Sequence record: MF158042
Source of the DNA: Shigella phage Sd1
Length of the DNA: 48,262 nucleotides
Strand: one strand, 5' to 3'
Shown: positions 3,082 through 48,262 of the stretch, piece after piece
How positions within the stretch are numbered: position 1 is the first letter of the stretch
Layout: each line of letters starts with the position of its first letter
The notes under the pieces: generated by a model
What the model was told of the DNA's origin: nothing
Seen by the model: the letters and a program-made list of their open reading frames with translations, nothing else
Database searches by the model: none
Translations under genes and position numbers: made by a program

Positions 3082-3124
3082 AATATAATCCATCCGTGGA
3101 TTTTAGTTTTAACAAAAAGTGCTA
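3082..3124 (-). promoter_or_regulatory. Palindrome-type promoter P12 (variant site taacaaaaagtgcta, 22-bp spacer, TATATT)
   Basis: Same architecture; site overlaps stop codon of upstream gene. Confidence 0.5.
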
Positions 3125-6479: not shown

Positions 6480-6965
6480 ATGAATGCAGTTGACAAGCGA
6501 ACCATTAATGGTAACAACGGAACAGTCCGCACTGAGGACAAAAGGCAACGCAAGCGACCTTCAGGTTACTACGTTTTAAAAGATGAAGTAAGGGCCGGAC
6601 TGCGCGCACGGCTAGAGATGGTTCTTGATTTCTTCGGCACAAAGGCAAACATAGCAAAGCAGTTAAAGGTAACCCCACAGGCTGTAGAGGAATGGTTTAA
6701 GCGTGGTATGATTTCTGCGCGTGGGGCTCAACTTTCGCACAACTACTACAAGCGAAATGGAGAAGGTTTTCGAGCCACATTCTGCCGACCGGACCTGCAA
6801 TTCGACGGCAACGGCAAGCCATTAACGCTTCGCTGCAAAAAGCGTCACATGCTGCGCGTCGTAACCGAGGCTGAACTAGCCACCAAGCCAGAGTGTCGAT
6901 CATGGCGCAAGATTAAGGAAGAGAATCGTAAAAAGCGAGAGGCAGAGAAAAACAGCACGATTTGA
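6480..6965 (+). CDS. Putative HTH DNA-binding protein
   Basis: Segment IAKQLKVTPQAVEEWFKRGMIS resembles Cro/YdaS-like HTH; gaggtggtg SD. Confidence 0.45.
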   Translation: MNAVDKRTINGNNGTVRTEDKRQRKRPSGYYVLKDEVRAGLRARLEMVLDFFGTKANIAKQLKVTPQAVEEWFKRGMISARGAQLSHNYYKRNGEGFRATFCRPDLQFDGNGKPLTLRCKKRHMLRVVTEAELATKPECRSWRKIKEENRKKREAEKNSTI

Positions 6966-11732: not shown

Positions 11733-11775
11733 ACTATACCTCACCTATTAAATGTTGTTTTAGCAATTAGTGCTG
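11733..11775 (-). promoter_or_regulatory. Palindrome-type promoter P4 (tagcaattagtgctg, 22-bp spacer, TATAGT)
   Basis: Same architecture; site overlaps exonuclease stop codon. Confidence 0.55.
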
Positions 11776-13830: not shown

Positions 13831-14189
13831 TTTTGTATATCGCTGTAAAACGCACCAAAATACGTTTTGCGACTCAGTACGCCGCATGAATGCTGAATGT
13901 AACTCTTGTAACCAATGTATCCACCAATTTTGCACCCTATCTATATCTATATGCATTTCCTCCTTAACAGGAAATCAAACATAGTCTTTTATAAAAACAT
14001 ACCAACATAGCTATAGAGAGTAGTTACAAGATATACATAGTAATATATATAATAATAATAATACTCTAAAACCTTATTATATAAGGATTCTATAGTGTAA
14101 CTAATGCGTATCTGTGCGTAAAAAGCGTATACAATTTTCTGCGGATGAGATTGTATACATCGAGTTACATCGGTTACGCGTATATAAAA

Positions 14190-14233
14190 TAGCACGATTT
14201 GCTAAAGACTACCGCATCAGCCTTTGCTATAGT
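14190..14233 (+). promoter_or_regulatory. Palindrome-type promoter P6 (tagcacgatttgcta, 23-bp spacer, TATAGT)
   Basis: Followed by leader tactccatcgaaacgaaac and ATG at 14274. Confidence 0.55.
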
Positions 14234-22746: not shown

Positions 22747-25713
22747 TTAACTATAACCACGCAAGAACTGGTAAGCAGTCCCGCCTTGCTGGAAGGATTG
22801 AGTAATCTCTTCCGCGATGATAACCCTGATACCAGATTCTAACTGTTTAGCGTCATTACCGGCACCACCACCAAGACCTGTCTGAACGGTAACATTCACG
22901 CCACCGACATTAACATTGCTTCCGCTAACAAGTCCACCAGTCGCATATCCAGGACCAGAACCGACAATACCTCCGTTTGCGTACCCGCGCATCAGCTTGT
23001 ACAGGTTATCCACACCAATCCTTGATGTTGCCTCTTTTGTGAATACAAACTCTCCACGATGAACTGTGCCTGCTGGCTCATATTTTCCACCATTACCAGT
23101 GTAGCCGCCAGAGGCAAAGCCAATAGAGCTAGCAATAGAGCCAATCGCGCCGCCACTACCACCAAAACTTGAGATGGTTGACTCAATTGCCTTAATCAAA
23201 AGAAGCTGAGTTGCAATGCGTGCAATCTGCTTCAAAATTGACGCGGTAAACTCACGGAAGTTGGCCTCTCCAGTAGTTACCAGGTTTGTGATCTGGTCAG
23301 TCAATCCATTGAATGCGCTCATTGCTAGCTCAGAACCAATCTGATTGAAGTTTGCTAATTCATCAGCAGTCTCAGCGAACGCAGACTTAACACCAGCTAG
23401 CCAGTTGCCACGTAACGCGTCCTCCTGGTTGTAGAAATTCTGACGAGCCTGAAGTAAAGCCTGGAAGTCAGTGTCATCTACGGAGCCTCCTTTAGAAACC
23501 TGCTGTGCTTCTAGCGCTGCCAACTCACGCCGCCTTTCAGCTTCACGTTGAGATAATCCAGCGCCAGTACTAATTGATGCCGCTTCAGCGTTAATCTGTC
23601 GAGTTTTCTTGATATTGTCATCAAGCAACTTATTGGCGCGCTCCTGCAATACAATCTGATCACCAAGCTCAGCCTTCTCTCTAGCAAGGCCAAGAATCTT
23701 ATCCTGCTGAAGTAGTAACCTTCGCTGCTCCTTTGTAATGGTGCCATCAGCAAGCCTTTCATTGAGGATAGCAAACTTAGCCTCTTCTGCGAATAGCTGC
23801 TTTCGCTCGTTACTGATTACATCACTAATCTGGCGGTGCTCCTGAAGAACCTTAAGCTGCGCCTGAAGAGCTAAAACGCCTGACTCGTAGCTGATTGTAA
23901 GGTCCCTCTGGTCCTTAACTCCTTGCTTTCTCTTCTTGTTTGCCTCCTCAATATCCTTAAGCTCCTGCTCCCTGGCCTTTCTGCGCTTCTCGAACTCAGC
24001 ATCGGATTCACCAGTTCTCTGCTGCTCTTCCTGGGTTGGGGTAACGTAACCAAGTTCACCCTTGCGAATCCTTGCATCACGTTCCGCTACGGACTTAACT
24101 AACTCTTCATTGGCTTTCTTAATTCCCTCATTCTGCTTTTCGAACTGCTGAACTAGCTCACTACCAACTCCATCAGCGCCAGGGATATTCTGGAATGCTT
24201 TAATTGTTGAGATCAGGAAGTTGTTGATCAGAACATCACCCTGGCCAATCAGCAACTGAATCTGCTCAATAGTACCAGCAACAACGTCTACTATAAGGTT
24301 TAGTGCGCCAAGCGTCCTGTTCCCGATATCCGTCCAAACCCGAGAAACGAAGTTTTTGAAGCTATCCCAAGCCTTCTCAAGCGGCGTTAGAGACTCCGCG
24401 ACTTTTGTTAAGCGATTCTCCATTACATCAGCAAATAGCTTAGTAGCCGCCGTTACAGCCTGCGTCTGACCCTCTGTAACCCTAATTTGCTCGATGTACT
24501 TAAGCTGGCCAGCGGTTAAGAAGTTAAACTGCTTATCAAGTTCAGCCAGGCCTTTGACCGGGTCATTTGCGATTTTATCGAAGTTCTTAACGATATCATC
24601 AGCGGAATCACCAGTGACTGTGGCCCAGCGCGCAGTCGCCTCAGTAATAATTGAAATCTGAGCTACCGTGCGGTTCCCACTTGCGACCAATCCATTAGCA
24701 ATCTCGTGGCCAAGACCTTGAGTTGCGCCTGCAGCCTCAGCCGCATTCCTTGCCAGTTTCTGAACTGCGCCAGCTGATAAGTTCGCTGATTGCCCGGTCA
24801 GGGTAAGCGTCTGGTTTAGCTGTGAAGTGTTCTGATAAGCCTGATAAGCAGACAATCCCAGAGCACCAAGAGCAACACCGAGAGCTCCAGCTGCGACAAC
24901 GAACGGGTTTAATGCAGCAAGTGCAAACCTGAATGTATTCGCTACGCCTCCAAAGCTATCCTTAATCTGACCGCCTTGCTGAATTGCGATTAGCCAGATT
25001 GGAATGCCGCCAGCTAATGAAGTTCCAATATCTGTAATCTGCGCTGGCAGCGTACGGATTGCGTTCTTATACTGCCCCACTGATAATCCAGAGCGCTGCA
25101 ATGCCTGAGATTGCCTTGTTAATGCTGCTGCGGATTGGTCAGCTGCCGCTCCGATTTGTGCAATAATTGGCGCCGCCTGGCTTGAAACTCCTAACTCTGC
25201 CGCCCTTAACTTTAACAACTCCTCGCGAGTTAATGTTGCCGCCTGGGCCTCAGCTTGTAGTGACTTAAGGAATCTTTCCGCTTGGGTTGCAGCTTGAGCC
25301 TTGGCTTTTGAAGCCTCGATTGCAGCCCTGCCTTCCTCAGTCAATGCGCGCTGTGAATTACGAAGCCTGTTAGTCTGAGTCTCCAGAGCCTCGCTTAAAC
25401 GGTAGAATTCAGCTTCAGGAATAACGCCAGCGGAGAAGGATTTATCCAGTGCGTCAGCTGCTTCCTGCAGTTTGCGAAGCTTTCCTGCGGTTGGATCAAT
25501 TGCGGTTTGCAACTGACGGAATGCTGTTCGCTGCTCAGAAAGATATCTGGCAGTATCGCGAGCCTGATTCTTCGCAACCAGCTCGGCGTTGACGAACTCA
25601 CTAACACCAGCTGCCGCCTGCTCATTGGCACGTTTAAATTCTTGCAGGGACTTTGTGCCCTGGTCAACCTGGCGAACGTCAACGCCAAGTGTGATACCTG
25701 CAAATTCTGCCAT
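22747..25713 (-). CDS. Tail tape measure protein
   Basis: About 990 aa, Ala/Gln/Leu-rich coiled-coil composition, follows G/GT chaperone; start at MAEFAGI with ggagg SD. Confidence 0.75.
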   Translation of the reverse strand: MAEFAGITLGVDVRQVDQGTKSLQEFKRANEQAAAGVSEFVNAELVAKNQARDTARYLSEQRTAFRQLQTAIDPTAGKLRKLQEAADALDKSFSAGVIPEAEFYRLSEALETQTNRLRNSQRALTEEGRAAIEASKAKAQAATQAERFLKSLQAEAQAATLTREELLKLRAAELGVSSQAAPIIAQIGAAADQSAAALTRQSQALQRSGLSVGQYKNAIRTLPAQITDIGTSLAGGIPIWLIAIQQGGQIKDSFGGVANTFRFALAALNPFVVAAGALGVALGALGLSAYQAYQNTSQLNQTLTLTGQSANLSAGAVQKLARNAAEAAGATQGLGHEIANGLVASGNRTVAQISIITEATARWATVTGDSADDIVKNFDKIANDPVKGLAELDKQFNFLTAGQLKYIEQIRVTEGQTQAVTAATKLFADVMENRLTKVAESLTPLEKAWDSFKNFVSRVWTDIGNRTLGALNLIVDVVAGTIEQIQLLIGQGDVLINNFLISTIKAFQNIPGADGVGSELVQQFEKQNEGIKKANEELVKSVAERDARIRKGELGYVTPTQEEQQRTGESDAEFEKRRKAREQELKDIEEANKKRKQGVKDQRDLTISYESGVLALQAQLKVLQEHRQISDVISNERKQLFAEEAKFAILNERLADGTITKEQRRLLLQQDKILGLAREKAELGDQIVLQERANKLLDDNIKKTRQINAEAASISTGAGLSQREAERRRELAALEAQQVSKGGSVDDTDFQALLQARQNFYNQEDALRGNWLAGVKSAFAETADELANFNQIGSELAMSAFNGLTDQITNLVTTGEANFREFTASILKQIARIATQLLLIKAIESTISSFGGSGGAIGSIASSIGFASGGYTGNGGKYEPAGTVHRGEFVFTKEATSRIGVDNLYKLMRGYANGGIVGSGPGYATGGLVSGSNVNVGGVNVTVQTGLGGGAGNDAKQLESGIRVIIAEEITQSFQQGGTAYQFLRGYS

Positions 25714-30736: not shown

Positions 30737-32212
30737 CTATGCGAGAGGTTTGCTTAGGTTTTCCACCTTATAAGCGTAAACGCCTGCCAAAGTATCAGAT
30801 GAGTTCCTTATTCCAACTATTGTAAGCTTGAAGCATTTAGAGTCAGCCGTAGCTCCTGGTGATGTGGTTATGTAATGCTCAGATGTGACTCCAAAAACGC
30901 CTGGCTTGAATACGCTATTCCAAAGAGCGGCCCCAGGAGGCATGCTTGTTACTATCGCTGTGTAGTTTTTCAACTTATCAGCTGCAACTGTAGTGAGTGA
31001 GTCAATCTGGTATGCAGTGTGCCTTATTGAAGCGATATTTGCTGTACCAGTATTACTAACACCAACCCATAAACCCTTGGCTGGAACTGTGGCGTTCTTC
31101 TCTCCGGTAAGGGCGAACCTTATTGTTGTCTCTCCGGGTATATCTATAAAGTCAGTATCCGTCTGATTGATCAACCCCGACCTTACGCCTGAAGCTACGT
31201 TATAAGAGGCTGGACCAGCCACCCCCTGTAAGCCCTGAGGTCCCGTAGGGCCCTGCAATCCACGCTCACCCTGCGGGCCTGCCGGGCCTTGTGGTCCAAC
31301 TGCACCAGCTACACCTTGTAAGCCTTGCGGGCCGGCTGGGCCTTGCTCACCTTGCAGGCCCCTCTCGCCTTGTGGGCCTTGAATACCTTCCGGACCTGTC
31401 GGGCCAGTTGGGCCTGCTGGACCAGCGGAACCCTGTGGGCCTGGGGCACCCTGTGCGGCCAGTAACTCCCAGGAATCGCTAACATCTGGATTTTCTCCGG
31501 TCACGGCGGCGGTAGCAAACCAGCTAGAGTTGTTAAATGTAACGACATCATCTTTAACGTAAGCTGTCGCAGCGTCGTACATCCCGCGGAATGTTAAGCC
31601 TGCCGGACCAACTGGACCCGCATCACCTTTATCACCTTTAGGGCCGGCCGGACCTGCTGCGCCGGTTGCACCGATAGGGCCTTGCGGACCAGACTCGCCA
31701 GTTTCACCTTGAGGACCTTGCGGGCCTACGGGGCCAGCTGGACCAGTGTCGCCTTTGGCACCTGCCGAGCCTGCCGGGCCGGTAGCACCTGTTGGGCCTT
31801 GAGGACCCTGTGGACCAATAGCTCCTGCCGGGCCCGCTGGACCCTGTGGACCAACCGGACCTTGCGGGCCTGCTTCACCTGAGCCTCCTTCTTCATCACT
31901 TACAAAATCACCTTTCGCCAGCGCTGAAAGATAAGCACCATCTTCGAAGTGGGCATTGCCAAACCTGCGCCAGCCCTGGGCTAGATATCTGTTAACCCTG
32001 TTAACTAATCCCTGAATTGTGGTATCGGATGTCACCATGAAGTCTTCAACGTTGTTTGCTGTTCCTTTCGCCATCTTCATGCCAAAGAGGGTGCCGCTCA
32101 GCATCTGCACGTCGCCATATGGCTGGAATCCTGATGAAATCATGATTTTTACGTTTCTGGCTAAGATTTCAGGTGAATTCCCTACTGCCATAGCAATTTC
32201 TGTGTAAGCCAT
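30737..32212 (-). CDS. Collagen-like repeat protein (two Gly-X-Y tracts)
   Basis: Two long uninterrupted G-X-Y runs ([16 protein letters not shown]... and [22 protein letters not shown]...) flanked by globular N- and C-terminal domains; aggag SD. Confidence 0.8.
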
Positions 32213-36587: not shown

Positions 36588-36914
36588 TTACTCGAACTTG
36601 ATTTCAAATTTGACTGAAGACACTTTGGCGCCAAGTCTATCAGCCTCATTTAGCTCGCCAATTAACTCGTAGAAGTAGCTTTTTTGCACCAAGTTGCCAT
36701 TGATATAATACTTTAGGCTTGCTGGCTCCTCAAATAAATCATCATCTTCTACTATTTCGAAATCATAGACACTGCTATTGTCAATTGAGACGCGGCAACC
36801 ATTATCATCAATTACAAATTTGCACTTATACCCATCATTAATCTGATATTTCATACCTTTAGTGAAGTTGAAAAAGCTATCATCCATTTTGTAACCTTTA
36901 AAAATTGCCTTCAT
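36588..36914 (-). CDS. Hypothetical protein (108 aa) between terminase and portal
   Basis: ORF with gagaggag SD, own promoter P7 and downstream terminator. Confidence 0.45.
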   Translation of the reverse strand: MKAIFKGYKMDDSFFNFTKGMKYQINDGYKCKFVIDDNGCRVSIDNSSVYDFEIVEDDDLFEEPASLKYYINGNLVQKSYFYELIGELNEADRLGAKVSSVKFEIKFE

Positions 36915-36943: not shown

Positions 36944-36986
36944 ATTATACGCCATCCCTGGCGATTGTATTTAGCAATTCGTGCTA
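36944..36986 (-). promoter_or_regulatory. Palindrome-type promoter P7 (tagcaattcgtgcta, 22-bp spacer, TATAAT)
   Basis: Perfect palindrome overlapping TerL stop codon, consensus -10, leader caactcatcaaaacgagagg. Confidence 0.6.
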
Positions 36987-38564
36987 CTTCACTCCAGCTA
37001 GTCGCATCAACCTGGCCCTTGGGTCATCACTTAAGTTCAACTCACAGTTGATTGCCATTGTTGTAGTATCGACAATGTCATCATGCGGATGTGAATCGTC
37101 AGCAGTAAACGCAGAGAACTCAGTTAATAGCGAAGTAAGCCATGGCGCAGAGTCTGGAAGAACTACGTTACCAGCCTTAATCTGTGGCAATGCGCTCATC
37201 ACCCTGGTTAACTTATCTGTATCAGGAACGAAAGGATCGATAGGAGTTCGCATTGTTCGGCCTGCTGACTGGATAAGGCCGATACCAGACGCCTTCTTCT
37301 CTATAATAACCTTGCGCAAGATTCCATCTGTTTTACTGGTGGCTCTGTGCTTGCTCTCAAAGTCAAGAAGAGCCTGCTCAAGCTCTGGAGCCTCCCATTT
37401 GCCTCTTACCATATCCAGAAGGTAAAGCTTGTTACCCTTACGTCCCCACAACTGAAATACAGAGTAGTCGCTATAACTCTTCGTCGTCATGGCGGTATCA
37501 GCCGTAATGAAGCGGTAGTCATACTTGACTGGCGGCCTGTTATTCTCATCAAGACGAACAAACCAATCGACGTTTATCAGGTTTCCACCTAGAGCTACTG
37601 GAGATTGTTGGTACTGGCTTAGGAATGTGTACGGGTCTGAATCCCACATCGCCACTAAGTCATGCACAGATTCCTTTTGCGGGAAATAGCTATAGTACTT
37701 GACCCCATCGCGCTCAACTGATTCAGATGACAGGACGTCCCTTTCGAATTGCTCACGAATCCAGTCAGGAAGGTCATTCACGTAATCTTCAGTAACCAGC
37801 GCCGGTATTTTAACCACATCAAAGTCGATACCCATGCCTCCAGAAGTCATGAACCACGTTGAATCCTGCGTATGAAGCCTTTGCTGAATTGACAGAATCG
37901 GCGTAGCTTTACCTTTAACACTGCTAGCCCTACGAGAACGGATGGTGTTCTTGAGTAAAACGTGTACAGCTTCACGCCTAACCTTGCTGAGCATATCGTC
38001 TGGCTTGTCTGGGTCATCAAGCATCAAGCAGCCACTATAAGTTTCAGTAATATAACCGCCACGCGCACCAGTAATCTGACCGCCAATTGCTTTCGATATA
38101 GCTTCGAATCTAACCTTGCCACTCCCATCAAGAACCTGAATCTCGTCATCTTTGCACGTACCGAACTTACAGGGCCATAGCTCCTGAAACTCAGCTGACT
38201 TGATAAGGTCGCGAACTCGCTTTGAGTTACGCTTCACGAGGCTATCGGAGAATGAAAGGCTCAGGTTTCTCACTTTCTTTAGCTTAAGCATTGAGTACAC
38301 CGGAAAGTGGATTGAAGTAATCTCAGTTTTACCGGCCCCGGGAGCTACGTTAATGATAGTATCCCTACGCTCCCCGCTGATAACCTCGTCAATGATTCGG
38401 CAAAGGTACTTATGATGCCAGTTAGGGATGTATCGCTCGCCTTGAGTTAACTGAAACCACACCCGAAGGAATGCTTCAAAGCTATGAGTGGATAACGCCT
38501 TAATTGCCAGCTTTTCGGCTGGCGTCATATCTTCCCAAGCTAGTGTATTCATAGTACAAGCCAA
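36984..38564 (-). CDS. Terminase large subunit
   Basis: Walker A NVAPGAGKT, Walker B-like LMLDDPD, C-terminal nuclease-like acidic residues. Confidence 0.7.
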   Translation of the reverse strand: MACTMNTLAWEDMTPAEKLAIKALSTHSFEAFLRVWFQLTQGERYIPNWHHKYLCRIIDEVISGERRDTIINVAPGAGKTEITSIHFPVYSMLKLKKVRNLSLSFSDSLVKRNSKRVRDLIKSAEFQELWPCKFGTCKDDEIQVLDGSGKVRFEAISKAIGGQITGARGGYITETYSGCLMLDDPDKPDDMLSKVRREAVHVLLKNTIRSRRASSVKGKATPILSIQQRLHTQDSTWFMTSGGMGIDFDVVKIPALVTEDYVNDLPDWIREQFERDVLSSESVERDGVKYYSYFPQKESVHDLVAMWDSDPYTFLSQYQQSPVALGGNLINVDWFVRLDENNRPPVKYDYRFITADTAMTTKSYSDYSVFQLWGRKGNKLYLLDMVRGKWEAPELEQALLDFESKHRATSKTDGILRKVIIEKKASGIGLIQSAGRTMRTPIDPFVPDTDKLTRVMSALPQIKAGNVVLPDSAPWLTSLLTEFSAFTADDSHPHDDIVDTTTMAINCELNLSDDPRARLMRLAGVK

Positions 38565-38658: not shown

Positions 38659-39174
38659 TCATAGCTTCTCCATAATAGATTCAAGTGCGGCCTTCATAGC
38701 TTCCTCGTCGTTAACTACCGCATTAGAAGCGTTGTTGATGTTAACCTCTTGCGGCTTGTCGATACCAAGGTCTTTGCCAATCAGTCCAGGGTTGACGATG
38801 TTGTTAACACCCAGCTGATACTTCTGCTCAAAGATGACCGAATCCACAAACTCCATCACCTCATCGAATCCAGGCGAAGATCGCCATTTACTAATGGCAT
38901 TATGACCTACACCGCAGAAAAGCTGGAAGCCAGTTATCGTAAATACTCTCGGCTTGTGAATAAGGTTTTCTGTTACGACGCCCTGAAAGCTAGCCGTTTC
39001 AATGGCCTTAATCGCTTGCTCTTCAGCCCAGCTGAAATACCTGACGGCCATGTCGAATACCTGTTCAGGGGTGTACCTGTGGTTAATCTTCAGATTGGCA
39101 ATATCGCCATACTTCTTGTTATACAGCTCCTTGAAGTTTCCTATCTTCTGGTGAATCTTTTTCTCTTCTGGCAT
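38659..39174 (-). CDS. Putative terminase small subunit
   Basis: Position immediately upstream of TerL; 171 aa. Confidence 0.4.
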   Translation of the reverse strand: MPEEKKIHQKIGNFKELYNKKYGDIANLKINHRYTPEQVFDMAVRYFSWAEEQAIKAIETASFQGVVTENLIHKPRVFTITGFQLFCGVGHNAISKWRSSPGFDEVMEFVDSVIFEQKYQLGVNNIVNPGLIGKDLGIDKPQEVNINNASNAVVNDEEAMKAALESIMEKL

Positions 39175-39475: not shown

Positions 39476-39551
39476 TGGCGTTCCGCGCTGGACTCGAACC
39501 AGCAACTGAGACTTAGGAGGTCTCTGCGTTATCCTGTTACACCAGCAGAAC
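39476..39551 (-). tRNA. tRNA-Arg (anticodon CCU)
   Basis: Manual fold: acceptor GTTCTGC/GCGGAAC, D-arm GTGT/ACGC, anticodon stem GAGAC/GTCTC with loop CTCCTAA, T-arm GCTGG-TTCGAGT-CCAGC, discriminator G and encoded CCA. Confidence 0.6.
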
Positions 39552-39556
39552 TTAAT

Positions 39557-39630
39557 TGGCACGGGATGTTGGAATCGAACCAACCTCTTTGGTTTTGGAG
39601 GCCACTATTCTACCAATGAACTAACCCCAT
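39557..39630 (-). tRNA. tRNA-like gene, possible tRNA-Trp (anticodon CCA); anticodon stem non-canonical
   Basis: Acceptor ATGGGGT/ATCCCGT with two G-U pairs, D-arm GTTC/GAAT, T-arm GTTGG-TTCGATT-CCAAC, encoded CCA; anticodon stem has only 3 Watson-Crick pairs. Confidence 0.4.
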
Positions 39631-41873: not shown

Positions 41874-42074
41874 TTGCGGTTTATTATTTTTGTTATACCA
41901 CTCAGCACAGGATATCCACGCAAAGAATGCCGTATTTGTTTGTAAATCAATATACTGCTGGTCTTCGTGCTTAGTCATTGGGTATTGGGTTCTCTGCAAG
42001 TCAAATCCAGTTTTCTTGGTGGCCCAATGCTCGAAGTCTTCTCTGACATTTTTGCATTCGTCTAAATCAAACAT
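41871..42074 (-). CDS. Hypothetical protein
   Basis: ORF. Confidence 0.4.
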   Translation of the reverse strand: MFDLDECKNVREDFEHWATKKTGFDLQRTQYPMTKHEDQQYIDLQTNTAFFAWISCAEWYNKNNKPQ

Positions 42075-42622
42075 TATTTAGTCTCCTTAATCATTTCCTG
42101 GTAAGCGTTAATCATTGCCACCGCGCCCTTAAGTTCTTCACCTTCAAGTCCAGCAACGCTTGGTGACAGCTTGAGCAATCGAGATTTAAACCTTTCAATG
42201 GTTGCTGCCTCCCTCTCCGATTCCTGCTTTTTCTTCTCGCGACTTCCAGTCCAGTGCGCGCCGTTCTCAATGTATATTACCAGGTATTTATCTGCGCCAT
42301 CACCATCGAAGCTACCAGGGTTTACCTGCTCGCCATCCTCATCAATCCAGATGAACTTATAGCGCGCTCGCTTGTTTGCATCTCGAAGCTCGGTCATTCT
42401 CGAAACCGTATTATAAATGTATGAGTTCTTTAGTTCCGGCATCGCCCTATCTGCAAGGTTTAGGATCTCACTGGTCTCCTCATCATACTGCATCTCAGGG
42501 TATTCTTTCCCGCGAACCAGCTTGAATATCTGGCTAACCGGAACTTTGAACTCACCACCCTCAGACGCCATCGCGTTACGAACCATCTCGCGGATAACTT
42601 CACCTAGTGTTACTTTCTGCAT
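42074..42622 (-). CDS. Hypothetical protein (182 aa), first gene of leftward early block
   Basis: ORF immediately downstream of AT-rich hub. Confidence 0.45.
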   Translation of the reverse strand: MQKVTLGEVIREMVRNAMASEGGEFKVPVSQIFKLVRGKEYPEMQYDEETSEILNLADRAMPELKNSYIYNTVSRMTELRDANKRARYKFIWIDEDGEQVNPGSFDGDGADKYLVIYIENGAHWTGSREKKKQESEREAATIERFKSRLLKLSPSVAGLEGEELKGAVAMINAYQEMIKETK

Positions 42623-43252
42623 GTTAATACCTCGTTTGGTTTACTTCGTTTCAGTGATTGCTATATTGCCACCTATTTACGTGTCGGTCAATGTATATTT
42701 TAGTATATTTTATCATGGATACGCATTTTTCCTCTCTAGCCCGCACCAGCACGGATTGTAAACCTGCCGTATCCCCTGTATACAGTTTTTTGAGGTTATT
42801 TCCTATATATGCGCCTTTTTATTCCTACAATATCATCCCTTTCTGACAGGTGTCAGAATATATGCGCGGAACATATCAACCATTCCATCCATGACCGGTA
42901 TACACGGTATACATATATATAATAATAATAATAATAATAGAGTAAAAGGTTGATATATATAGATATTATATTGTATATCGAGTGTATATTGGCGTAAAAA
43001 ACGTAGGTTAGTGTTCACTAACTTTTGTGACGACACTGAGTATACGTAGGATACGCGTATATCATTAAATGGCTCAGCAAGAATCAAAATCAACTTGTAT
43101 GGTAGTCCATCCATCTTTCATTCACTCACTCATCAATTCATTGCTCAATTCGCAACAATCAAAAACATCATTGCATCTGAAGCAACATTGCTATATGTGC
43201 AATAATCATGTGAATCATTGCAATAGCTGCAACAAACCATAAATCGAACGAA

Positions 43253-43296
43253 TAGCACTTTTTGCTAATGACCATTCAGCCCTGATTGGTTATATT
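43253..43296 (+). promoter_or_regulatory. Palindrome-type promoter P10 (tagcactttttgcta, 23-bp spacer, TATATT)
   Basis: Perfect-arm palindrome, -10, leader cattacatcaacaacgaggag. Confidence 0.55.
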
Positions 43297-43324
43297 CATT
43301 ACATCAACAACGAGGAGATAAAAC

Positions 43325-43549
43325 ATGAATGCGATTATCATTAACAACGAAATCAAGTATGACAAAGATGCATTAAGCCTGGCTGATATGGGTTATGAAA
43401 TTGGTGAGAAGGTTCACCTATCAGTTTGCCAGTTAAGTGGTGAGATGTACTTAACTGTTAAGCAAGACTTAGTAATCGATGGAATCGTTGCTGTCTATGC
43501 TGGAGAAGAGATTTGCGTTAGTGACGATGAAGTGGAGATGATGGCATGA
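43325..43549 (+). CDS. Hypothetical protein
   Basis: ORF. Confidence 0.4.
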   Translation: MNAIIINNEIKYDKDALSLADMGYEIGEKVHLSVCQLSGEMYLTVKQDLVIDGIVAVYAGEEICVSDDEVEMMA

Positions 43550-45291: not shown

Positions 45292-46875
45292 ATGTTTGAT
45301 TTTAACGAAGACAAGTTATCAGTAGAACAAGTGATGTCTGTCGCTGCGGCTGAAAATCTACCACCATTGCGAGTCGCAATTAATGCAAATGGCTATCGTC
45401 AGAGTGCATCATTCTGGAAAGCTCCGGTCGAGATTGATTCAACTGGTGATAAATATCCGGTTATCTCACTTGGTAATGATTGTGACGTTGTTGGTAAGCT
45501 ATCAGCCAACATTGCGCGCTCAGTTCAGTTCCCTGAGTCATCCGCTTATATGCATTTTCTTGGCTGCATATCAGCGGCAATGCTTGGTCGATTCACTGTT
45601 GAATACCATGGAACTCAGCAGCCGACATCCCTATACGTCGTAACCAGTCAGCCTCCATCAACTGGTAAGTCAGCCATTAACTCACTCGCACTAGCGCCAA
45701 TGATTGCTGAGACTGAGCGACTTAATGAATTACGCAAGCGTGAGCGTAAGAAGATTATGGCTAAGCTGTCATCTCTGGCAAAAGAGATGAAGCAAGAGAA
45801 GTCACCATCAGAAATGGCTGGATTATTCGAAGAGAAAGAGGAGCTGGAGGAGAAGCTCGAGAAGCTATGCGATATCGTTTTCCCCGTGTCCGATACCACA
45901 CCTGAGGGCCTTGCCAGAATAAACAACCGCCAGGGTAACTTTGCGGTTATCTCGGATGAAGCAACTAGCGTCAACTCACTGCTTGGCATGACCTATGGTG
46001 ATGGCTCAAAGAAAACTAACAGCGAACTGGTACTCAAGGCGTGGGATGCTGGTAACGTATCTATCGCGCGTGCGAATGCTGAGAATAACATGAGTTTCGT
46101 AGCAATGGGGTGTATCTCTGTTATTGCGCAGGATGAGACAATAAACGCCATCATGAATGCCGGCGCGCGCGGTATCGGTGTGTCAGAGCGTTTTCTACTT
46201 GTGCGTGAAAAGTCATTCCTTGGCGAGCGTGTATTCGTCGATGAGAATGGTAACTCAACTTACGAGCCAATTGATGGTGAGCTTAAGGCTAACTACTTCC
46301 GCCTGGTTCACGAAATCATGAATGAGCAAGAAGTAAAGTTGACGGTTAGCAACTCAGCAATGAAGTACCTCAACCGAGCACGCCAGGAGATGGAACCTCA
46401 CCTTGCTGACGGCGGTAAGTATTCACACACAATGCTTAGAGGTGCGCTTGGTAAAATGGATAAACAGGTAATTCGCCTTGCTGCAGTTCTTCACACTATC
46501 AGCAACTGGTTCAGCCATAATGGCGGGAGTCCGCAGAAGTCCAGAGAGATTGAACTGGAAACGATGCAAGAGGCTTTATTGATGTTTGATGAGCTGAGTA
46601 AAACTTATCTATCTTCCGCTAACGCCGCTGGTCATGCAGGTGACAATGCGGAGATGAATAAGCTAATTGATATCCTGATTAAGCAAGGCAGGAATAGTAA
46701 AGGAGTTGTAGGCTTGCGCTCACTCTATGAAGCAGCACGCAAGGTTAAGCCTTTTGAGGCTCAGTCTGGCGTAATGGCTAAGATTAAAGACCACTTACTT
46801 CCGATGCTTGATGAGAAAAACTACACCTGCCTGATTGGTGATAAGGTTTACATTAATCCGCGACTGCTGGGGTGA
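45292..46875 (+). CDS. Walker-A ATPase, possible replication-associated protein
   Basis: P-loop VVTSQPPSTGKS followed by acidic coiled region; largest plus-strand early protein; a DUF3987-type fold is a guess. Confidence 0.4.
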   Translation: MFDFNEDKLSVEQVMSVAAAENLPPLRVAINANGYRQSASFWKAPVEIDSTGDKYPVISLGNDCDVVGKLSANIARSVQFPESSAYMHFLGCISAAMLGRFTVEYHGTQQPTSLYVVTSQPPSTGKSAINSLALAPMIAETERLNELRKRERKKIMAKLSSLAKEMKQEKSPSEMAGLFEEKEELEEKLEKLCDIVFPVSDTTPEGLARINNRQGNFAVISDEATSVNSLLGMTYGDGSKKTNSELVLKAWDAGNVSIARANAENNMSFVAMGCISVIAQDETINAIMNAGARGIGVSERFLLVREKSFLGERVFVDENGNSTYEPIDGELKANYFRLVHEIMNEQEVKLTVSNSAMKYLNRARQEMEPHLADGGKYSHTMLRGALGKMDKQVIRLAAVLHTISNWFSHNGGSPQKSREIELETMQEALLMFDELSKTYLSSANAAGHAGDNAEMNKLIDILIKQGRNSKGVVGLRSLYEAARKVKPFEAQSGVMAKIKDHLLPMLDEKNYTCLIGDKVYINPRLLG

Positions 46876-47728: not shown

Positions 47729-48195
47729 AACTTAATCTCCGCGTTACGCCTGTTAACCAGGCCTTTGCTAACAACCTTCTTCCCACCAACGGTGATTTTA
47801 TTCCACATGGAGAATGCATCGCATCCGCCTAGGATATCACCACGATTCATCCGCCTGATAACCGTTGAGTTACGCATTGCGTTAGTGCCAATATTGTATG
47901 ACAAGCTGTAGAGTGCCGCCCTGGTGCTTACCGGAACATCCACTTTTAAAGCCTTATCTACTGCCGCCTTATGGATTGCAAGGTGCTTCATGAGAAGTGC
48001 GTCGCACTCGCGCTTTGTGTATACCTTCCCTGGAATAACGTCTGAACCAGTGATGCCTGCGCAAATAGTCCACACCCCAGCAACATCCCTGTAAGGCCTG
48101 TACTCAACACCCTCATGCTCATTCAGGAATGGAACCGCCAACGCCATTGCGCCAGCTACAGCCGAACCAATGACCTTATTCTTGATGCTCATCAT
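47710..48195 (-). CDS. Endolysin (phage lysozyme with N-terminal SAR-like signal anchor); 5' part also present at 1-249
   Basis: N-terminal weakly hydrophobic Gly/Ala-rich segment KVIGSAVAGAMALAVPF followed by EGVEYRPYRDVAGVWTICAGIT lysozyme-type catalytic region. Confidence 0.7.
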   Translation of the reverse strand: MMSIKNKVIGSAVAGAMALAVPFLNEHEGVEYRPYRDVAGVWTICAGITGSDVIPGKVYTKRECDALLMKHLAIHKAAVDKALKVDVPVSTRAALYSLSYNIGTNAMRNSTVIRRMNRGDILGGCDAFSMWNKITVGGKKVVSKGLVNRRNAEIKLCVSEL

Positions 48196-48262
48196 TTACT
48201 CCTGATTCTCATTGCCTCGCGAATGTCGCCATCCTCAAGTGCTTTATGGAGCGCTTTACTGT
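47947..48262. repeat. Second copy of the terminal duplication (equals 1-316)
   Basis: Same as above. Confidence 0.9.

Follow-up and report, generated by a model that had tools for sequence, protein, structure and literature searches.

What is the long non-coding gap in the genome of Shigella phage Sd1 for? The gap, here termed hub B, lies at positions 42623–43324 of the 48,262-nucleotide DNA stretch analysed (record MF158042; in what follows, the window means this whole stretch), with the start of a minus-strand DUF7174 gene (42074–42622) on one side and a plus-strand ATG at 43325 on the other. A sequence-only reading had noted a cluster of ATTGC motifs near the right end of the gap and had called them iteron-like, which implies a replication origin. 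We find that these motifs form an array of four inverted repeats belonging to a strongly conserved block, and that the published DNA ends of related phages fall at or next to this array. Array and block together are probably, with a likelihood that we put at about 0.6, the pac (packaging initiation) region of the phage, situated within a divergent promoter hub.

Sd1 is a T1-like siphophage of the Drexlerviridae, subfamily Braunvirinae, whose closest relative over hub B is Escherichia phage JeanPiccard (Bas02), followed by the Veterinaerplatzvirus phages. The structural and packaging genes are on the minus strand, and the first gene of the rightward block, starting at 43325, encodes a 74-residue protein that matches phrog_5684. 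JeanPiccard is annotated with a 707-bp gap at the equivalent place, the homologous gap is the largest annotated gap in both Rtp and T1, and the T1 hub likewise measures 700 bp (162 + 538). The view that hub B is non-coding, conserved and divides the leftward from the rightward genes is borne out. Comparative alignment, covering 12 phages for the whole hub and 21 phages plus T1 for its right-hand part, resolves it as a mosaic of four parts: a left arm, an AT-rich module, the conserved block and a right-end promoter element.

The conserved block (43067–43250, ∼185 bp, single copy) is 91–93% identical in Rtp, MSK and RobRod40, and its segment 43088–43135 reaches 96–98% in the same three phages. 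It was found in 128 phage records at 80–95% identity, at one place per record. Its left portion, the proposed cleavage-proximal part (43067–43138, minus strand), has a conserved core, AAAATCAACTTGTATGGTAGTCCATCCATCTTTCATTCACTCAC, at 43086–43129. The array follows at 43139–43235, with four ATTGC-N7-GCAAY inverted repeats: R1 (43140–43155), R2 (43170–43185), R3 (43187–43202) and R4 (43217–43232). Their start-to-start spacing of 30/17/30 bp gives the layout an overall two-fold symmetry. A conserved linker, CAACAAnCCATAAATCnAACGA (43236–43250, 40% invariant columns across the 21 phages), joins the array to the promoter element. The cluster had been described as mixed CATTGC and GCAATG half-sites; CATTGC is indeed there four times, always on the plus strand (43139, 43169, 43186 and 43216), while the partner half-site is GCAAY and not literal GCAATG. 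The palindrome ATTGCAAT is present as described, at 43217–43224.

The array is not a chance feature. The pattern ATTGC-N7-GCAA has six matches in the window against 0.82 expected, a count that none of 100 shuffles reached; five of the six are within 43140–43232, the only cluster, and the other is an isolated chance match at 23211. The earlier claim that these repeats are non-random and distinct from the TAGCA-N5-TGCTA sites found elsewhere in the genome therefore holds. One occurrence per genome is what a cis-acting site would show, in contrast to a general operator. The manner of conservation is also informative: over the 21 phages the half-sites show 0.14 bit and 72% invariant positions, the N7 spacers 0.68 bit and 18% (permutation p < 5e-5). 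Fixed half-sites with free spacers indicate binding by a sequence-specific protein, and not coding or RNA structure. As a separate observation, ATCTGAAG (43174–43181), within the R2 spacer, is identical to 8 nt of P22 pac as quoted in PMC11447400; since the R2 spacer varies among relatives, this is probably a coincidence.

The same pattern bears on the proposal that the block is a gene for a small protein or for an RNA, structured or small, which we regard as very improbable. GenBank records do place coding sequences (CDSs) over it (TR1 ORF13, 1494–1643 of the compared stretch; a BEK1-1 CDS, 1571–1687; Phleasolo_63, 158–280), and two open reading frames (ORFs) of the window, 43069–43242 on the plus strand and 42833–43114 on the minus strand, are open across it. 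These frames are disrupted in most relatives by lost start codons, stops or frameshifts, folding energy as RNA or DNA is no better than that of shuffles (z about −0.2), and substitutions gather in the N7 spacers with no codon or stem pattern. All three ORFs called in the hub, two of which were already doubted in the sequence-only reading, are spurious: none matches a PHROG family, and each is frameshifted, stopped or without its start in most of 11 relatives. Rfam finds only two tRNAs (39479–39630) in the whole window and nothing in the hub at E ≤ 1. Judged from the non-conservation of the window ORFs, the small CDSs annotated over the block in TR1, BEK1-1 and Phleasolo are probably spurious as well, which stands as a warning for annotation of such records.

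The published DNA ends of relatives, together with database annotation, argue for packaging as the function of the block. The TR1 paper gives a PhageTerm position, 3615, without direction, which maps to window position 43110. The MSK paper gives a PhageTerm start at 36862, on the forward strand only; its counterpart in the window is 43102, with a leftward direction. The SU57 record was opened by its authors at an end coinciding with an abrupt change in coverage, and its start maps to 43084. The UDF157lw record was reorganised by PhageTerm as that of a pac-type phage, and its boundary maps to 43109/43110. A preferred end of the kind that defines pac is thus seen in relatives, with four independent published ends inside 26 bp (43084–43110), 30–55 bp to the left of the ATTGC array. 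T1 adds a fifth case. Its reference record, NC_005833, opens at the pac end and is annotated with a repeat_region at 1–2800, a 2.8-kb terminal redundancy; its position 1 falls inside CATTGC-attctaa-GCAACAATCAC / GTTGCA-caccat-GCAACAATCAC, which are homologues of R1 and R2. For Rtp, the first base of the record corresponds to window position ∼43192. A further record, ESCO41, was considered as one with terminal repeats and rejected: its first base is within the hub, but the record lacks a repeat.

Where direction is reported (MSK, SU57, UDF157lw and T1), packaging proceeds toward terS and terL, leftward in the window. T1-like phages are documented in the literature as pac, or headful, packagers, and Sd1 encodes terminase subunits of headful type: a small terminase (TerS; 38659–39174, minus strand) with the Pfam domain GP3_package of the P22-gp3 family, and a large terminase (TerL; 36984–38564, minus strand) with Terminase_6C. 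Bases 1–316 of the window are 100% identical to 47947–48262, leaving 47,946 unique bases, which means that the assembly is circularly closed or terminally overlapping; this identity is compatible with terminally redundant, circularly permuted virion DNA, and may also be an assembly overlap. With the ends of four relatives and the T1 record at or next to the array, pac is better supported than a replication origin.

We propose the following sequence of events. TerS, the presumed reader of the array, would bind the four ATTGC-N7-GCAAY sites at 43139–43235. TerL would then make the series-initiating cut 30–55 bp to the left, at about 43084–43110, inside the conserved TCCATCCATCTTTCATTCACTCAC stretch, the putative cleavage region; by homology, Sd1 would be cut at the position used in its relatives. 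Packaging would run leftward, taking in the DUF7174 gene, small early genes, tRNAs and terminase genes in turn and yielding virion DNA that is terminally redundant and partly permuted. The flanks of the hub would have promoter roles: on the right, a TAGCA-N5-TGCTA element with its −10 box (43251–43296) would be the promoter of the rightward block, and on the left the AT-rich module (42896–43066) would form an upstream or divergent promoter region; its second copy likewise stands before a TAGCA promoter, in hub A.

Several points weigh against assigning pac to the array. The termini of Sd1 itself are placed by homology only, and the binding of TerS to ATTGC-N7-GCAAY is putative. The PhageTerm calls are uneven in quality, the SU57 end is one of several candidates, and two other studies of T1-like phages found no terminus with PhageTerm. 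The cut lies beside the array and not within it, and T1 position 1 (window ∼43186) lies ∼80 bp further right than the ends that PhageTerm gave for the closer relatives. A 17-bp palindrome is a more usual form for the site of a dimeric helix-turn-helix (HTH) regulator than for the known TerS sites. Sd1 TerS is 96–98% identical to that of Rogunavirinae (AKS96, C119) and only ∼64% identical to that of the Veterinaerplatzvirus, IME542 and ZL19 phages, which have the hub B block in common with Sd1. This split shows the genome to be mosaic around its packaging genes; both groups keep the array, which is 90% identical despite the ∼64% identity of TerS, so the comparison gave no signal of co-variation. 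No satellite carrying the block was found in 5,426 complete Escherichia coli genomes. Phage TLS has no ATTGC array, although its pac was mapped by restriction analysis to the equivalent hub. Lastly, the array is 20–110 bp upstream of the rightward promoter element, a position equally compatible with a role in transcription. As for TLS itself, its record starts with CTCACTCACT followed by AATCA-type repeats, and from their sequence these are a possible alternative recognition motif in Tempevirinae.

A rival proposal is that the palindromes are operators of a dimeric phage regulator, perhaps a small early protein or the Cro-like HTH product of 6480–6965, which would switch the rightward or leftward early promoters, or both, the DNA ends being coincidental or secondary. 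Inverted repeats of 16–17 bp with conserved half-sites and a free spacer have the classic geometry of HTH-dimer operators, the hub lies between divergent operons with both the TAGCA element and its −10 box downstream of the array, and the genome does encode an HTH protein of the Cro-like kind. We nevertheless think this account unlikely. The cluster occurs once, despite at least 12 TAGCA-type promoters, and the second divergent hub of the genome (hub A) has none; the array stands clear of the −35/−10 region; and the four mapped termini and the T1 pac position coincide with it. Conservation is also distributed in a way that speaks against promoter control: the block keeps its 91–93% identity in Rtp, MSK and RobRod40, while the 19 bp that separate the −10 box from the TAGCA element (43272–43290) have no invariant column (1.48 bits), and 43251–43300 overall is only 60–74% identical in these phages.

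Initiation of replication, the function at first implied for the ATTGC repeats, draws its better evidence from the part of the hub to the left of the block. This AT-rich module (42896–43066, plus strand, ∼170–190 nt) was delimited by comparison with hub A and with relatives, and is 58–60% identical in Rtp, MSK and RobRod40. It consists, in order, of a tandem CGGTATACA (two copies), (ATA)7 at 42919–42939, GGTTGATATATATAGATATTATATTGTA, GYGTAW-like boxes ∼10 bp apart (42982, 42992 and 43001), an inverted repeat GTTAGTG-TT-CACTAAC (43007–43022) and ACGCGTATAT (43053–43062). The run of ATA had been seen as a longer microsatellite that might vary in length among isolates. The run exists, and its length is held at 14–25 nt in every copy, in 12 of 12 aligned phages and in hub A, so it is not a freely varying microsatellite. 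No convincing sigma70 −35/−10 pair could be assigned in the module, by eye or by promoter scan.

The genome's least stable 80-bp duplex is at 42908–42987, where dG is −76.6 against a mean of −108 (standard deviation 6), ∼5 standard deviations away; hub A ranks second. As in iteron-type origins, an AT-rich element of the DNA-unwinding type thus lies beside a repeat array, here ∼150 bp away, and the repeated sites are conserved in the pattern of protein binding. On this basis the ATTGC sites, the phased GCGTAW boxes or both might be iterons bound by an initiator, with the (ATA)n segment as the unwinding element at which the DUF3987 helicase and the primase are loaded. Beside the AT run the boxes are phased at ∼10 bp, which is clearest in hub A and in the copies of Rtp, SU57 and MSK, and they are degenerate in Sd1 hub B; the T1 hub has two copies of GGCGTAATTT; the DUF3987 helicase gene (45292–46875) is 2 kb to the right of hub B, and a separate primase gene is also encoded. 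Moreover, no origin has been identified in the literature for any T1-like phage.

For the ATTGC array this reading nonetheless finds little support, and we hold it to be distinctly unlikely. The units are inverted repeats at 30/17/30 and not phased direct iterons, the hub has no GATC site, DnaA box or IHF core, and the repeats neither adjoin nor lie within an initiator gene, the neighbours being the DUF7174 gene and the 74-residue gene. The AT-rich module occurs twice per genome and its second copy has no ATTGC array, and the published DNA ends directly explain the conserved block in another way. GC skew was rejected as an indicator of origins, for it follows gene orientation. The searchable literature yielded no replication mapping in T1-like phages and no usable transcription-start maps for Drexlerviridae. 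Judged from its sequence, the AT-rich part would be a more origin-like piece of the hub than the array.

The second copy of the module is in hub A (14024–14204), where a TAGCA promoter element follows directly, at 14190. The sequence-only reading had claimed motifs common to the two hubs, and the similarity is real and more extensive than claimed: hub A 14024–14129 aligns with hub B 42901–43006 at a score of 67, against 22 ± 3 (maximum 38) for shuffles. The particular 14-mers cited, TTGTATATCGAGTG (42971–42984) and ACGCGTATATCATT (43053–43066), are present in hub B and absent from hub A at up to two mismatches, where gapped look-alikes stand in place of the exact motifs. Hub A has GCGTAW boxes at 14106, 14116 and 14125 (spacing 10 and 9 bp), with five GCGTAW in 78 nt. 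Rtp, SU57 and MSK each carry exactly two copies of the module, co-oriented, one per hub. In hub A the module abuts the TAGCA element; in hub B the conserved block separates ACGCGTATAT from TAGCAC. Hub A being without it, hub B resembles a promoter region of the hub A type into which a pac cassette of ∼185 bp has been inserted.

The paired modules admit a bolder proposal, to which we give little credence: they may be a pair of replication origins, or a pair resembling ori and crr, served by the primase and the DUF3987 helicase, with the pac cassette inserted in one copy. If true, this would couple the start of replication physically to the start of packaging. The duplicated module is the first sequence-based candidate for the replication origin or origins of T1-like phages.

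To the right of the proposed pac block, the hub ends in a promoter-associated element of a known family. A 21-nt intergenic repeat with the consensus aaATAGCACnnnTTGnTAAAA has been described for TLS, T1, Rtp and Rogue1 (PMC11447400), and hub B holds a copy, AATAGCACTTTTTGCTAATGA, at 43251–43271 (plus strand; 71% invariant columns in the 21 phages), pointing the same way as the downstream gene, whose ATG follows after 72 nt, against a family norm of ∼60–85 nt. After it come a −10-like TATATT (43291–43296), a leader, the ribosome-binding site GAGGAG and the ATG at 43325 (43291–43327, plus strand), with a promoter scan match at 43268–43296. This repeat covers only the last ∼75 nt of hub B and is distinct from the ATTGC array.

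The window contains 12 copies of TAGCA-N5-TGCTA against 2 expected, at 3110, 3951, 6452, 7996, 14190, 36972, 40941, 41859, 43253, 44615 and 45216, and at 11761, which could not be oriented. At 10 oriented sites a TATAnT hexamer stands 22–23 bp after TTGCTA. The oriented layout begins with TAGCAC-N3-TTGYTA and continues with a gap of 22–23 nt, TATAnT, a leader resembling CATCGAAACGAAAC, a ribosome-binding site and the ATG; the gap often holds a short GC-rich hairpin, for example cccttcggggc or cccgcttcggcggg. TTGCTA and the −10 box lie too far apart for the former to act as a sigma70 −35. With its centre at about −43, the palindrome looks like a class-II activator site.

The left arm of the hub (42623–42895, minus strand) is variable, at 44–55% identity in MSK, RobRod40, Rtp and AHP42 and 66–95% in the other seven phages, with conserved islands such as TTTACGTGTCGGTCAATGTAT (42676–42696). 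It contains the leader and candidate sigma70-type promoters of the leftward DUF7174 gene; the matches in the promoter scan are weak and the promoter role is putative. The DUF7174 protein is only ∼35% identical in many phages that share the conserved block. The arm also has a perfect 18-bp palindrome, TTCTGACA-GG-TGTCAGAA (42841–42858), with a third, direct half-site, ATTCCTACA, at 42821–42829. MSK, RobRod40 and AHP42 have TTCCTACA-nn-TGTAGGAA as the palindrome and the half-site ATTCCTACA unchanged; both arms have thus been altered together in these lineages. The palindrome overlaps a minus-strand promoter-like match and is a possible operator or hairpin.

Two observations were made elsewhere in the window. 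The tRNA genes are adjacent on the minus strand (39479–39551 and 39560–39630; Rfam, 52 and 49 bits), against one tRNA-Arg each in the descriptions of SU57, TR1 and the AHP and AKS phages. The minus-strand ORF 30737–32212, of 491 residues, has a GC-rich stretch (31270–31874, 0.57–0.59) with tandem repeats of 9-nt and 36-nt period, which suggests a collagen-like Gly-X-Y region in the protein.

T1-like phages are classic models, contaminants of laboratories and fermentations, and generalized transducers. That their packaging starts in this hub was already known; the sequence determinant of pac has not been defined in any of them. The SU57 authors state that the pac site was not identified in that phage, and in TLS pac was assigned only by a loose resemblance to P22 pac (PMC11447400). 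Hub B offers a concrete and conserved candidate, namely four ATTGC-N7-GCAAY sites with a cut 30–55 bp away. It would make pac recognition by a TerS of the gp3 family testable, along with the engineering of packaging or transduction vectors and the adoption of consistent genome start coordinates across the family.

Among known systems, iteron origins such as lambda ori, or P4 ori with crr, place repeated protein-binding sites beside an easily melted AT-rich segment. The hub B array differs from them in having no phased direct iterons, no surrounding initiator gene and no host-factor boxes, while the two cis modules per Sd1 genome recall P4 ori/crr or SPP1 oriL/oriR. The alpha protein of prophage CP-933 and the primase of phage phi-R73 are presumably P4-type proteins. 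In the T1 record the primase is described as similar to both, the former being named there as the alpha replication protein.

P22 and Sf6 have a small terminase of the gp3 family, as does Sd1 (GP3_package), and package by the headful with a preferred start. The P22 pac is a single asymmetric 22-bp sequence within terS, whereas the hub B candidate is an intergenic array of four sites. In function, hub B resembles pac sites in which repeated recognition elements adjoin a cut. SPP1 pac (pacL-pacC-pacR) and P1 pac (repeated hexamers flanking the cut) are unique cis sites where short repeats recognised by the small terminase or pacase are found next to the cleavage region, and packaging proceeds one way. 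By analogy, hub B would share with them a unique site, repeats beside the cut and unidirectional packaging. It differs in the form of its repeats, which are inverted (ATTGC-N7-GCAAY) and lie without exception on the side of the cut that is not encapsidated, in its distance of 3.9 kb from terS, and, unlike P1 pac, in having no GATC (Dam) sites.

The pac, or left, end of T1, a phage of the same family, is homologous to hub B by position and to some extent by sequence. A blastn search of the hub against T1 gave no match, and the similarity became apparent from reading the junction and from alignment. T1 differs in having only two recognisable ATTGC-type units. Its first rightward gene, 538 bp from position 1, occupies the place of the Sd1 DUF7174 gene, a likeness of position; a DNA search and tblastn gave no match in T1. 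On its other side the T1 gap is bounded by the last small gene. T1 too has a divergent gap of ∼700 bp at this place, with packaging toward terS and terL as proposed for Sd1, and its elements (CATTGC-N7-GCAACAATCAC repeats, AT-rich ATATA runs, GCGTAA repeats and TAGCA elements) follow one another as in hub B.

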